A stretch of DNA of 58,193 bases from a virus (Duplodnaviria; Heunggongvirae; Uroviricota; Caudoviricetes). Positions 1 to 58,193 of this stretch are shown here, piece after piece. The stretch's first letter is position 1; each line of letters begins with the position of its first letter. The stretch spans positions 1-58,193 of the IMG/VR virus record IMGVR_UViG_3300045988_132327, one strand, 5' to 3'. Under the pieces are notes generated by a model. It searched no databases and was not told the origin of the DNA. It saw only the letters and a list, made by a program, of their open reading frames with translations. The position numbers and the translations under genes were made by a program.

Positions 1-156
1 GTAAACGGCGCTCGTAACATTTTAGCGGCGGGGCACGCCGTTCTTGCCTGTGGAGGGATGGTGCAGTCAGGCCGCCCGTTGAAGCAGGAACCCACCGAAA
101 TGATTCAGGCGACAGCCTGAACGTAGCAGGAATCCACGCCCTTCAGAGCGTGGAGG

Positions 157-825
157 ATGTCAAATAGCCGTATTGATGGTTCAGGCTACAGAAACATATG
201 GGTTGTTGGTGATCTGCATGGTTGCTACACCAGATTGATGTCTGAACTTCATCGTGTGGACTTTGACCCGACACAGGATTTACTGATATCGGTTGGCGAC
301 CTTATCGATCGCGACACCGAAAATGTTGAATGCCTGGAGCTATTGCAGATGCCCTGGTTTCGGTCGGTTATGGGAAACCACGAGCGATTAATGATCGATG
401 CGTTAAGCCCAGCTGGAAACGTGAATAACTGGCTAATGAATGGCGGCCAGTGGTTCTTTATGCTGGATAGTGATAAGAAAGTTTTAGCCAGGGCGCTGGT
501 GGAGCTGGTAAGGCAATTGCCTCATATCATTGAGCTGAACACCGGGCAGGAGACTATTGTCATTGCTCATGCTGACTATCCGGATAGAGAGTATCAGTTC
601 GGTAAGGCTGTGCCGCTTTTCAATGTCATCTGGTCGCGCGACCGTGTTAGTGATTCGATAGATGGCATCGGTGAAGAAATTACAGGTGCAGATCGCTTTA
701 TCTTCGGACACACCCCGGCTAAAAGCCCAAAAGCATTCTGGAACCAGCATTATATCGATACTGGTGCTGTATTTTGCGGAAACCTGACGCTAATGCAGGT
801 GAAGGGAGGGCAGCTTAAAGTCTGA
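157..825 (+). CDS. ppp: Ser/Thr protein phosphatase, lambda PPase-like metallophosphoesterase
   Basis: 222 aa; GDLHG, GDLIDRD and GNHE metallophosphatase motifs; ggagg SD upstream of ATG. Confidence 0.85.
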
Positions 826-865
826 TCAAATCATTTACGCACACAAACGCGTTAGAATATTGATT

Positions 866-880
866 TTAGTTTTCTAACAT
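866..880 (-). promoter_or_regulatory. operator-like motif ATGTTAGAAAACTAA (reverse strand)
   Basis: identical 15-mer to 14218..14232 and 24853..24867; between ppp and ORF 922. Confidence 0.5.
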
Positions 881-921
881 ATTATTTTACCGCTCGGAAC
901 AAAACAGAGTCGGTATACATT

Positions 922-55575: not shown

Positions 55576-55585
55576 GCCAACCTCA

Positions 55586-57016
55586 TTACGGATAAGAAAT
55601 GCTGAAAGTAGAAGATTTTACGTCAAGATAAATAAAGTCATTAAAGTAAACAGCATCCTTCATATTTTGTATTTTTATGTCATAAGAGAGAAACATATCC
55701 AACGATTCTATTACGCGCCAAATATCTTTGACTTTTACCTGCGCATAGCATTGCTGGGAATCATCATCACTCTGTAGCAATAAACTGAACGAGGACGAAT
55801 CACGCCCAAAATTATCTTCCAACGCGGCTTTAATGGCATTTTTAGCATCGTCTATCAGAACACTTTTACGTGCAATACCAGTAAAATTTATCGTAAAAGG
55901 CTGTTCATTTGTATCTACATACTCGAACCGCTTGTTCAGTTCATTTGGAACATTCTCCAGGGCTTTAAGAATTTCTGCCTTAAGTTGCTCCTGGCTTACG
56001 CCCGGCTTATGTCCACAAAAGAAAATCTTATTGATGTTACGCACATCAAATCCTGTTATTTTTTCTTGTAACGCTTCACCCCAAACGTTCAGCCATGACG
56101 TACCGTGTACCACGTTCTGGATGAATTGACGGTAATCACCGCCCCATACGACTTGTTCATCATATGCAACATAATACTGTGCGCGATTTCGGGTTTCTTC
56201 TGTTGTTTCCATGCCACCGCCGCCAGTAATGATCGAATCGGTTTTAAACTCCAAAGACTCTATGTATTGGGCAATATTTCCAGCTGGTTCTAACTTTTGT
56301 CCTTCAGCCAAAGTATAGTCGCCAAGGCTAGCCATAACATCAATTCTAACCTGACAACCTGCTGGCGGCATCATACCCATAGAGCCGTCACCAAATTTAA
56401 CGCCAAGTTGTTCAGTTGGCTTATATGCCAATGAATAGTGCTTACTTTTGTCTCTGGACATTCGAAAAAATGGGTTGTAGACCCATTTTTTTTCTACACC
56501 ATTTGTAATAACATAAACATCAAGGCTAGAGACTTCTTTTGTTAATTCTCTGGAAAGCAACAACGTCAGGAATAGCGTTTCCTTTTCAATATCAAATGTA
56601 ACGCTTACGGCTTCGTGCTGTTTGACTTCTACACCAGAAACAGTTTTCCCAGCAGGAACAACCACACTGTTAATAATTGCTAAAGGAGTTTGGTCGCTAG
56701 CAAGCAATTCTGCCCCGGCTGGTAACGTAATATCCCGATCAGTTTTATTGGTTATCGACGTTGTTCCGTATGAAGCACTAACAAATCGTCCCACGTAGCC
56801 ACGGTCTTCAGCAACCGCCAAAATACTTGACCGGCGCGTAGCTGTTGAAATAAGCCCCTCAGTAAGACCACGACTTGCAAATGTACGAGCAATATAAATA
56901 AGCTGTGCTCCGAACACAGCGTGCATCTGCACAAACTGACTGTTTACAAATCGTGACCACCATGTATTTTCATTTAGCTTGGCGTTAAATTTGTCCAGTA
57001 ATTCTGTAATGGTCAC
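55586..57016 (-). CDS. baseplate protein, J-like
   Basis: 476 aa, typical size and position for baseplate J/gp47 family; not motif-verified. Confidence 0.45.
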   Translation of the reverse strand: MTITELLDKFNAKLNENTWWSRFVNSQFVQMHAVFGAQLIYIARTFASRGLTEGLISTATRRSSILAVAEDRGYVGRFVSASYGTTSITNKTDRDITLPAGAELLASDQTPLAIINSVVVPAGKTVSGVEVKQHEAVSVTFDIEKETLFLTLLLSRELTKEVSSLDVYVITNGVEKKWVYNPFFRMSRDKSKHYSLAYKPTEQLGVKFGDGSMGMMPPAGCQVRIDVMASLGDYTLAEGQKLEPAGNIAQYIESLEFKTDSIITGGGGMETTEETRNRAQYYVAYDEQVVWGGDYRQFIQNVVHGTSWLNVWGEALQEKITGFDVRNINKIFFCGHKPGVSQEQLKAEILKALENVPNELNKRFEYVDTNEQPFTINFTGIARKSVLIDDAKNAIKAALEDNFGRDSSSFSLLLQSDDDSQQCYAQVKVKDIWRVIESLDMFLSYDIKIQNMKDAVYFNDFIYLDVKSSTFSISYP

Positions 57017-57387
57017 GCGCCCACCCCGCTTGATTTCTGCATAACAATATCCATGCTTCCACCTTTCGCATAAAAACTAATTAATAAAGAATCTTCAGAA
57101 ATGGATGTACAGCGAATTCCCTGCACATCTAAACCAGGTAGATCTTGTCGTAGTTTTGTCATCATTCTCCCTTCAATAGCCACTTCGACTATGTGCGAAG
57201 TTTCAGAGCCGAATGGTTCATGCTTAAATTCTTCCATTGGATTTCCCCAGGACGGCAACCCATAAACGCTTCCTTCCGGGGTTCGTAACCACTCGTCAAG
57301 GCGAGCCATCCAGGCTGCTGTATTTCCCTCTGCAATAATGACACCGCTTTCGTTCGTTTGAAGTCTTGCGTCTATTTCGTAAAGCAT
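57013..57387 (-). CDS. baseplate wedge protein, gp25/GPW-like
   Basis: 124 aa; overlaps downstream gene start. Confidence 0.45.
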   Translation of the reverse strand: MLYEIDARLQTNESGVIIAEGNTAAWMARLDEWLRTPEGSVYGLPSWGNPMEEFKHEPFGSETSHIVEVAIEGRMMTKLRQDLPGLDVQGIRCTSISEDSLLISFYAKGGSMDIVMQKSSGVGA

Positions 57388-57392
57388 CAGTA

Positions 57393-58193
57393 TTAATCCT
57401 CCAGCAGTGCATCCAGCGACTGGTCATTAATAGTTGTGCTCGCACGTGGTCGCGGCTGCGGCTGCGATGTTTTGACAACATTATCCGGATCGCCTTTTGT
57501 ATTGTTCTTGTTCACATTCAGCAGATCGTTCAGGATAGAGCAGATGTTATCCAGCGCCTTCAACATAGCAGGATCGTTATTTATAGTGTCAGTAGTTAAT
57601 GGTTGTCTTATTCCGCTTCGTGCGAGATCGGTTACAGTAGGGAGTTGTGGCGGCATAGCAAGAAAAGGTTCTTGCACAGCTGAAGCAGAGCCAAATATGG
57701 CGTTATTGGCACCAGTTGCTATTCCCCTAATGCTATTAGCGGTTTGTTGAATCCCCCCATTCAGCCAGTCTCCAACATTTCTTGTTAATGGGCTAATAGC
57801 TCGCGCAATCGCACTATTCTGCCCAGTAGACTGCATTACAAGATCGTTCAATATCCCTGTACTATCAATCCCCCCAACAAGTCGTGAAAGGTTATCGCCA
57901 ACGGCAGGAATTACTGCGGTTCCTGTCTGTTTAAGCCCTGACACCGTGGAATCAAATAGCGAACCAAAGAAGCTCTTATCCTCACCTGTAACCACCTTGT
58001 AGCCGTTGTCATAAATCTGCACATCACTTGGTGCCGTGATAGTTCGTTTTCCAGAGGTAACTACTGGCGCAGCTCCCGCCATAGCCTGGTTGATTGCTAG
58101 AGCCTGCTCCTGCTGTGGGGTTTTCGGTGCTGGCGCTGCAGATGAAAAGCCCGCCATAGCCTGGCTGATTGCTAGAGCCTGCTCCTGCTGTGG
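57393..58193 (-). CDS. tail protein, 5-prime-truncated at window edge; N-terminal region carries 25-aa tandem repeats
   Basis: frame stays open upstream of the listed ATG to the window end (PQQEQALAISQAMAG repeat); gene start lies beyond 58193. Confidence 0.45.
   Translation of the reverse strand, partial: PQQEQALAISQAMAGFSSAAPAPKTPQQEQALAINQAMAGAAPVVTSGKRTITAPSDVQIYDNGYKVVTGEDKSFFGSLFDSTVSGLKQTGTAVIPAVGDNLSRLVGGIDSTGILNDLVMQSTGQNSAIARAISPLTRNVGDWLNGGIQQTANSIRGIATGANNAIFGSASAVQEPFLAMPPQLPTVTDLARSGIRQPLTTDTINNDPAMLKALDNICSILNDLLNVNKNNTKGDPDNVVKTSQPQPRPRASTTINDQSLDALLED

Follow-up and report, generated by a model that had tools for sequence, protein, structure and literature searches.

The 58,193 bp of DNA held in IMG/VR virus record IMGVR_UViG_3300045988_132327, which we analysed over its full length and call the window here, encode homologues of many proteins of bacteriophage P1, but in an order that is not that of P1. 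Does this element of a virus of the class Caudoviricetes represent a newly shuffled lineage? An earlier note, made from the letters of the sequence, had read it as a mosaic phage-plasmid lineage that arose by large-scale shuffling of modules relative to P1. We compared the window with other records by megablast and blastn at the nucleotide level, with P1 by tblastn of the open reading frames (ORFs) of the window, and with Pfam, PHROG and Rfam models, and predicted tRNAs with ARAGORN. The window is almost certainly a 58-kb piece, about 64%, of the genome of a D6-like phage-plasmid belonging to subgroup P1-g2 of the P1 group, and its genes follow the order that is fixed in that lineage. Both the rearrangement relative to P1 and the mosaicism are real; the order, however, is that of D6 and of plasmid pKFS-B20_2, and not that of a newly shuffled lineage.

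The best match by far among phage records was Escherichia phage D6 (MF356679 / NC_050154; 91 kb). In megablast searches positions 14136-25000 matched D6 116-10465 and positions 25001-48435 matched D6 10466-32292, at 92-96% identity; P1, P7, SJ46 and RCS47 covered just 8-15% of the first 25 kb, all inside 187-9873. The blastn alignment was collinear with D6 on a single strand, its major segments running monotonically from D6 80021 over the rox origin to 41456: window 164-2220 aligned with D6 80021-82079 (94%), 8049-14029 with 84898-91159, the end of the circular map (92-98%), 14136-20364 with 116-6283 (89%), 21455-39776 with 6915-25241 (97%), 42500-48468 with 26352-32325 (92%) and 53139-58015 with 36582-41456 (88%). 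The gaps between these segments hold replaced DNA and involve no rearrangement. Altogether 44,479 of the 58,193 bp aligned to D6 at 93.9% in megablast, 48,603 bp aligned to the complete circular plasmid pKFS-B20_2 (CP125072), collinear across the whole window, and merely 7,060 bp aligned to P1, at 88%. The annotations of D6 and pKFS-B20_2 give a gene order identical to that of the window, and outside the invertible C segment no change of order or strand relative to D6 was found, only replaced segments.

The same layout extends to many other records. Fourteen plasmids each cover at least 80% of positions 1-25000 in one place, and dozens of non-mobilizable plasmids of about 90-96 kb from E. coli, Salmonella and Shigella cover 70-78% of 33194-58193. 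In IMG/VR, PacB of 97-100% identity is found in about 25 contigs; the single one inspected (L019) has the same neighbours. No host chromosomal DNA was found in the window, the closest records being circular plasmids of about 90 kb. An assembly in which P1-like and other phage or plasmid pieces had been artificially joined would account for patches of such unequal identity to P1, lambdoid phages and P2; such a chimera is nevertheless highly improbable, as the same junctions occur in independent complete circular records and identity to D6 runs on across the supposed joins.

P1-like phage-plasmids have been split into P1-g1 and P1-g2, the latter comprising the close relatives of D6, with a mean weighted gene repertoire relatedness (wGRR) of 0.23 between the two subgroups, and collinear blocks in inverted orientation around the position of the replicase were noted for them (Pfeifer et al. 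2021, PMC7969092). The same features were described for the D6-like Salmonella plasmid pYU39_89, which lacks lxc, has c4/icd in two places and a lysin gene beside immI, and carries a divergent fibre segment; the paper refers to Gilcrease & Casjens 2018 for the detailed comparison of P1 and D6 (PMC6799933). A survey of clinical isolates has also covered D6-like elements (bioRxiv 10.1101/2025.09.12.675607). The D6-type lineage is a known, already published sister of P1, and because the window belongs to it, the non-P1 order is the normal layout of the lineage and no new reshuffling. The lineage itself was reportedly published by Gilcrease & Casjens in 2018 (Virology 515:203).

How far the order departs from that of P1 can be counted. 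The 40 genes common to the window and P1 give 39 signed adjacencies, of which 27 are kept and 12 broken; the longest block left intact runs from hxr to sit (window 40.5-58.2 kb, P1 24.2-41 kb; 17.7 kb). All 12 breakpoints are also present in D6 and pKFS-B20_2. Every P1 homologue listed in the earlier note (Cre, Phd/Doc, Hot, HumD, PacA/B, DarB, Cin, fibre S/U) was found by tblastn, in the neighbourhoods it had described, with the cre-like gene beside doc-side cargo, cin beside lydA, and darB separated from prt. That the order is not that of P1 was therefore correctly seen, although of the three examples offered one was mistaken and another half right. The cin gene of P1 had been placed beside the immI/kilA-repL region; it adjoins lydC/lydA (cin at 31660-32220, lydC/lydA at 30854-31532), so the cin-lydA neighbourhood of the window is the P1 arrangement. 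The lpa-pacA-pacB-c1-rox-cre module is conserved relative to P1: only the outer flank of cre differs. The cre gene of P1 has c1/coi as its neighbour across lox, and in the window the adjacency to c1 is kept across rox and continues into pacB, pacA and lpa. In P1 darB does adjoin prt-pro, as stated, and this adjacency is truly broken in the window.

The broken adjacencies, a two-peaked distribution of protein identities to P1 (below) and the lack of any record matching the whole window are what one would expect of a novel mosaic lineage whose P1 modules were recently and uniquely reshuffled, as had been proposed. This is very unlikely: D6 and pKFS-B20_2 share each breakpoint, the many E. coli, Salmonella and Shigella plasmids have the same layout over the long stretches compared, IMG/VR holds contigs with nearly the same PacB, the one inspected having the same neighbourhood, the lineage is published, and what is specific to the window is replaced segments in an unchanged order. 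Two findings count against the proposal in the form in which it was made, namely the existence of close relatives with identical order and the mistaken position of cin on the P1 map.

Identity of the encoded proteins to P1 in tblastn was bimodal. The products of ppp, hot, humD, phd, doc, cin and the fibre cassettes were 81-100% identical in amino acid sequence (Ppp 86%, Hot 93%, HumD 96%, Phd 100%, Doc 91%, Cin 97%, U 82%, the C-terminal part of S 81%), and all others 20-57% (Cre-like 41%, C1 20%, PacB 56%, PacA 21%, Lpa 31%, DarB 43%, Prt 51%, Pro 43%, RepL 29%). The mosaicism is real but ordinary: accessory and host-range cassettes have been exchanged recently while the scaffold stayed fixed; the cargo and fibre cassettes would have been swapped recently with P1-type elements, lambdoid phages and P2-like phages. 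Could the element instead be a true P1 (Punavirus, P1-g1) variant whose genes were displaced by insertions of cargo? Ppp, Hot, HumD, Phd, Doc and Cin at 86-100% identity and the 17.7 kb from hxr to sit in P1 order speak for it. We regard it as extremely unlikely, with core proteins at 20-57% identity, rox in place of lox, P1 operators and late promoters absent, and inversions of the prt-pro and lpa-cre blocks that insertions cannot produce. In gene order and genome-wide nucleotide similarity the window falls outside P1 sensu stricto; high-identity collinearity with D6 and the Dre/rox pair place it in P1-g2.

With P1 (NC_005856) the window shares the kinds of modules, the lpa-pacA-pacB-c1-lox/rox-cre, ulx-darB and hot-humD-phd-doc blocks, and the order hxr-ddrB-ddrA-darA-hdf-lydB-lydA-cin-S/U-R-16-bplA-pmgA-sit. 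It differs in that its core proteins are only 20-57% identical and 7 kb is all that aligns at the nucleotide level, the lysin, immI and repL stand between darB and an inverted prt-pro, the accessory block is found across the cre core from its P1 position, res-mod, lxc, lyz, ssb, kilA and lydC are absent, and the operators and late-promoter motifs are unlike those of P1. With D6 and the P1-g2 plasmids pYU39_89 and pKFS-B20_2 it shares gene order and strand throughout, and with D6 also Dre/rox, the divergent C1, repL beside pro-prt with an immI module, the CHAP lysin beside darB, the tRNA cluster and the Cin C segment. Relative to D6 the cargo at 2220-8049 is replaced and pdcA is missing, an SPFH gene stands instead of tciA/tciB and a tRNA-Arg(TCT) instead of tRNA-Asn, hxr and a ddrB of full length replace the truncated ddrB and the orf23/orf24 of D6, the C segment carries other fibre cassettes (one P2 H-like), rox has one substitution, and C1 is 90% identical in amino acid sequence. 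The element should be annotated as D6-like (P1-g2) and not as an aberrant P1; beyond this the assignment has little importance. Tools built on P1 markers (IncY/p0111 replicons, loxP, C1 operators, the P1 map) will not treat such elements correctly, given their Dre/rox system and their different regulatory sites.

Which of the two maps is the rearranged one? Distant relatives were found by alignments of Prt and PacB. Prt relatives were found in three Pantoea contigs and one Enterobacter contig (62-63% identity) and in Enterobacteriaceae bacterium B14 (48%), and these have ulx and darB on the minus strand, divergent from prt on the plus strand, followed by pro and repL on the plus strand and by ddrB, ddrA and darA on the minus strand. 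The Pantoea and Enterobacter loci have pmgM (minus strand) ahead of ulx, as in D6; loci of the Pantoea type have a C4 RNA between prt and pro. The PacB relatives, at 78%, 71% and 65% identity, all keep lpa-pacA-pacB-c1, with cre following c1 where the locus reaches past c1 (the 78% and 65% groups) and with pmgS upstream of lpa, as D6 has it, in the 78% and 71% loci and in one 65% locus out of three. In the 65% group the order continues cre-c8-isaA-ref-mat, and hot, humD, phd and doc are absent from it within 10 kb. Taken together, these elements of the P1 supergroup (Pantoea, Enterobacter, B14, and IMG/VR elements L007-L010, L014, L034-L039 and L077) share with the window ulx-darB, prt, pro-repL, ddrB-ddrA-darA and lpa-pacA-pacB-c1(-cre), with pmgM upstream of ulx in Pantoea/Enterobacter and in L034/L035 and the C4 RNA in Pantoea/Enterobacter only. 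They differ from it in having proteins 25-79% identical, darB and prt as divergent neighbours as in P1, and other cargo. Merging the L034/L035 flanks with those of Pantoea/Enterobacter into one map was rejected, these being different lineages.

D6, by comparison, has darB (minus strand), the lysin (plus strand) and then ant, icd, C4, repL, pro and prt, all on the minus strand. The divergent darB-prt pair is probably ancestral, because it is common to P1 and to the Pantoea/Enterobacter/B14 lineages. Conversely, pro-repL in all relatives and pmgM-ulx-darB in Pantoea/Enterobacter are shared with the D6 type, which makes P1 the odd one out there. In P1 the ppp…hot-humD-phd-doc-pdcB block lies immediately before lpa, and in D6 the ppp…doc block is inverted and lies between isaA and ref on the cre side; it has the highest nucleotide identity between P1 and D6. 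Since this accessory block is so similar in both and the homology ends in doc, the cre-doc neighbourhood points to an exchangeable block in a different position, with cre itself unmoved. The differences from P1 would then be old, lineage-level rearrangements of self-contained transcription units. In the D6 type, inversion of prt-pro-repL together with immI would have separated darB from the portal gene, and the accessory block from ppp to doc would have come to lie inverted on the cre side of the lpa-cre core, where P1 has it on the lpa side; the changes of P1 itself would include the placing of res-mod next to ulx and of repL with immI/kilA. This suggests that the P1 order should not be taken as ancestral, P1 and D6 both having lineage-specific rearrangements around conserved cores.

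For the regulatory sites, the P1 C1 operator (ATTGCTCTAATAAATTT) was not found in the window at up to 3 mismatches, and the P1 Lpa late promoter (AAGTGACT-N-TAnnnT) had 2 matches in the window against 2.3 expected by chance. At chance level, these P1 sites are unusable as markers of module boundaries in the window; their absence fits the identities of Lpa (31%) and C1 (20%) to P1. Two motifs were derived from the window's own intergenic regions, a partly circular procedure, for which shuffled sequences give an expectation of 0.1-0.4 matches per sequence. A candidate late-promoter element, AAATMACAnnCT with a -10-like hexamer, occurs at 18657, 33715, 33750 (plus strand), 39765, 43884, 47663 and 54681, upstream of lpa, darB, the lysin gene, prt, ddrB, lydA and R respectively, and outside the window in D6 at 45500, 67402 and 72109, upstream of the pmgB/sit, gene 7 and mat operons. 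The prt, lydA, R, mat and sit/gene 7 operons have late-promoter counterparts in P1 (LPpro, LPdar, LPs, LPmat, LPsit, LP26). A candidate C1 operator, TTTTCTAACATA, occurs at 871-880, 14218-14227, 18695, 24858-24867 and 37002-37011, upstream of the DUF968 gene, c1, lpa, pmgR/pmgS and repL, and in D6 also at 75979, near the second c4/icd region; P1 has C1 operators at matching positions (Olpa, OpmgR, OrepL, Oc4). If these motifs are real, each relocated module carries its own control signals, and for that reason gene order could vary between lineages without loss of function.

We also considered whether inverted copies of a late promoter could have mediated the prt-pro-repL inversion, as the same 12-mer, AAATCACATACT, occurs at 33750-33761 (plus strand) and 39765-39776 (minus strand). 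Such a mechanism predicts a homologue of the lysin beyond repL on the opposite strand; none was found there in the relatives that lack the inversion, and the Pantoea-type loci have beyond repL only an unrelated minus-strand gene with a similar motif. The idea was rejected and is kept here as speculation.

Several points weigh against the assignment as set out above. The genes for plasmid replication and partition are absent from the window; D6 has them at 45.8-59.6 kb (RepB-type replication, ParM/StbA partition and glnS together occupying 45.8-61.6 kb), and the window stops at about D6 41.5 kb. That the element is maintained as a plasmid, an extrachromosomal prophage, is hence concluded from its relatives. 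An end-to-end match to the window was not found in any record of the three collections, and among complete E. coli genomes none covers at least 80% of 39000-54500 in one place. The cargo at 2220-8049 is matched only in part, the stretch 39776-42500 recurs in 4 plasmids only, and the C segment differs; the window is a new combination of variable parts. The polarity argued above is drawn from few ±10 kb flanks and percent identities and not from a phylogeny, and the two motifs come from the window itself, the 33750 site and the D6 sites outside the window being the independent ones. An extended account, in which the window represents a rare D6-like sublineage that has perhaps ancestral hxr and full-length ddrB, the P1 map is partly derived (repL away from pro, the accessory block before lpa), the D6 map arose by one prt-pro-repL inversion, and the TTTTCTAACATA operator and AAATMACAnnCT are perhaps undescribed, we hold to be doubtful.

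The individual modules of this D6-like element are as follows, with strand given as + or - after the coordinates. In the core, the Dre tyrosine recombinase (12833-13861, -), the homologue of Cre with a Phage_integrase domain, is 99.4% identical in amino acid sequence to D6 and 41% to P1 Cre, and the cargo on its low-coordinate side terminates in doc (9503-9883). The rox site, counterpart of lox, lies at 14014-14045; 31 of its 32 bases equal the D6 rox junction, none of 100 shuffles matched, and the P1 lox sequence differs from it. By homology to P1/D6, Dre acting on rox would resolve or circularise the genome. The rox of the window has a T to C change in the right arm relative to the canonical site of D6 and pKFS-B20_2, by which the perfect symmetry of the arms is lost. 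Next follow the c1-type prophage repressor (14247-15284, +; 90% amino acid identity to D6 C1, 20% over 239 residues to P1 c1, E 1e-5), pacB (15356-16864, -; 56% to P1), pacA (16864-18228, -; 21% to P1 over the full length, E 6e-8, and PHROG terminase E 8e-179) and lpa (18225-18617, -; 31% to P1, Pfam BPP1_LPA E 1e-56). PacB, PacA and Lpa are 96-99% identical to D6; PacA with PacB would package DNA, and Lpa would switch on the late operons. Members of P1-g2 have been reported to encode pacB homologues only (Pfeifer et al. 2021, PMC7969092), although a PacA homologue is present in the window; that report is presumably due to the similarity threshold used.

The region that separates darB from the portal gene begins after ulx (26347-26781, -; antirestriction protein) and darB (26818-33654, -; 99% amino acid identity to D6 and 43% to P1, with SNF2, helicase and N6-methylase domains). 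Between darB and prt lie a CHAP lysin, a Rha-type antirepressor, icd, a C4 RNA, repL and pro. The CHAP-domain peptidoglycan hydrolase (33806-34291, +; 100% to D6 orf16, CHAP E 3e-7) is probably the endolysin. The Rha-type antirepressor (34521-35273, -; Rha/HTH Pfam domains), icd (about 35228-35452, -; 69% to P1 icd), the C4 antisense RNA (35500-35585, -; Rfam RF01695, 71.9 bits against a gathering threshold of 45) and the c4-a1b1 target (35654-35706, -; RF03163, 52.2 bits against 46.7) together have the composition of an immI-type module, with C4 RNA and a1b1 upstream of icd and a Rha-type antirepressor downstream. This module and the divergent C1 would control lysogeny. The lytic replication initiator gene repL (35867-36829, -; 97% to D6 orf20, 29% to P1 RepL), whose product would drive lytic replication, is followed by pro (37030-38028, -; 99% to D6, 43% to P1) and prt, the portal gene (38042-39724, -; 99% and 51%), both inverted relative to P1. 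Opposite the repL leader, at 36795-36916 (+), we noted a sigma-70-like promoter, TTGAAA-17-TAAAAT (10/12), with a strong terminator hairpin about 70 nt further on; it could be the source of a small antisense RNA, comparable to the antisense promoter in kilA of P1. In the Pantoea-type element L008 a TIR-domain gene of the CAP12/Pycsar-effector type (16477-17586, +; E 4e-21) lies between repL and ddrB, apparently as defence cargo in this same variable position.

On the other side of prt lie two small ORFs, one of 117 amino acids with no matches (39857-40210, +) and one of 87 amino acids that is HTH repressor-like (40223-40486, +), then the hxr-like gene (40521-40814, -), in a P1-like arrangement, and a full-length ddrB of 1013 amino acids (40804-43845, -; ddrB-ParB domain E 1e-41). 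The 2.7 kb at 39776-42500, which span the two small ORFs, the hxr-like gene and the C-terminal 560 residues of DdrB, occur in just 4 of 72,556 plasmid records, at 99.5-100% identity. In D6 ddrB is truncated to the N-terminal 452 amino acids, plus orf23 and orf24. The P1 homologues ddrA, darA, hdf and lydB (all -) and lydA (47295-47621, -) complete a stretch in which order and strand from hxr to lydA are those of P1 24.2-31.2 kb. DarB, Ulx, DdrA, DdrB, DarA and Hdf would be antirestriction proteins, virion-packaged in P1.

Beside lydA begins the invertible segment, with the cin invertase gene (47727-48287, +; 97% to P1) and the bounding sites cixL (48282-48301) and cixR (52739-52758), neither of which differs from its counterpart in P1 or D6. 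In the silent slot lie a P2 H-like fibre end (48335-50281, +) and beside it a fibre assembly protein gene (50281-50883, +), the slot being 95% identical in nucleotides to P2-like phages; on the expressed side are U (50942-51469, -; 82% to P1) and S (51473-54190, -), whose C-terminal part is P1 Sv'-like (81%). The inverted repeat of the C segment is 158 nt long and 91% complementary, and Pfam matches in the segment are to Collar and Caudo_TAP. A serine invertase beside a segment that is bounded by inverted cix sites and has two facing fibre/chaperone cassettes is the arrangement of the Din family, and Cin would invert the C segment, switching the tail-fibre end and hence host range. The window ends with the D6/P1 homologues R (54187-54633, -), gene 16 (54730-55575, -), bplA (55586-57016, -), pmgA (57013-57387, -) and the C-terminal part of sit (from 57393, -), cut off by the end of the window; these genes (54187-58193) are in P1 order, with 93-98% amino acid identity to D6 and 42-47% to P1.

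The accessory block starts in the window with ppp (157-825, +; 86% amino acid identity to P1, 88% to D6) and a pdcB-like DUF968 gene (922-1917, +; 38% to P1 PdcB, 99% to D6 orf98). The variable small-gene cargo that follows (2217-8022, +) includes two Ead/Ea22-like proteins and a DUF551 protein (by Pfam), unknowns and a pmgU-like C-terminus (6841-7710, +), and matches lambdoid and Stx phages at 94-96% nucleotide identity. D6 has no blastn match to 2220-8049 and pKFS-B20_2 matches a part of it, and PADLOC, run on ten ORFs that are unknown or cargo, detected no defence genes. Then come hot (8445-8696, +; 93% to P1), humD (8820-9209, +; 96%), phd (9276-9503, +; 100%) and doc (9503-9883, +; 91%); nucleotide homology to P1 (94.5%) ends at 9873, in the last codons of doc. 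By homology, Phd/Doc would act as an addiction system. From there to dre the genes at 9967-12771 are 94-99% identical in amino acid sequence to D6 orf113-117: an isaA-like gene (9967-10767, -; 47% to P1, the sole P1 homologue among them), a Tad2-like/DUF2829 protein gene (10774-11436, -; 220 amino acids, with a C-terminal anti-Thoeris family domain, E 2e-22), a dUTPase gene (11451-11945, -) and homologues of orf116 and orf117 (up to 12771, -). The Tad2-like gene lies three genes from dre and its D6 homologue is shorter (146 amino acids); L008 has a small Tad2-like ORF (12674-12931) directly downstream of its C4 RNA.

Between lpa and ulx, pmgS (23620-24843, -; 21% to P1), a pmgR-like gene homologous to D6 (24942-25256, -) and pmgM (25453-25947, -; 57% to P1) are 98-99% identical in amino acid sequence to D6. 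Nearer to lpa, homologues of D6 orf5/orf6 lie within 18726-23240 (-), together with an SPFH/Band-7 gene identified by Pfam (20377-21204, -), where D6 has tciA/tciB; the protein is also encoded by pKFS-B20_2, with 100% amino acid identity. Four tRNA genes were found here by ARAGORN and Rfam: tRNA-Met (20147-20222, -), tRNA-Ser (21685-21771, -), tRNA-Thr (22226-22301, -) and tRNA-Arg(TCT) (22304-22380, -). Positions 21883-22867 are 92.8% identical in blastn to P1 69844-68855, inverted. The anticodon of the tRNA at 22304-22380 is TCT (Arg), as against GTT (Asn) in D6 and P1; its acceptor stem is the same as that of the tRNA-Asn and its T arm nearly so, its D loop is longer by one base, and its anticodon stem-loop is a different one throughout, which looks like a switch of tRNA identity through a swap of the anticodon arm. 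This variant occurs at 99% identity or more in 69 plasmid records, and a relative of about 83% identity is found in Klebsiella and E. coli plasmids of about 100-110 kb. In the D6 RefSeq record NC_050154 the tRNAs at 7145-7850 are annotated on the plus strand, where ARAGORN places them on the minus strand, and ARAGORN predicts a fourth, unannotated tRNA in that record, a tRNA-Met at 6084-6159 on the minus strand.

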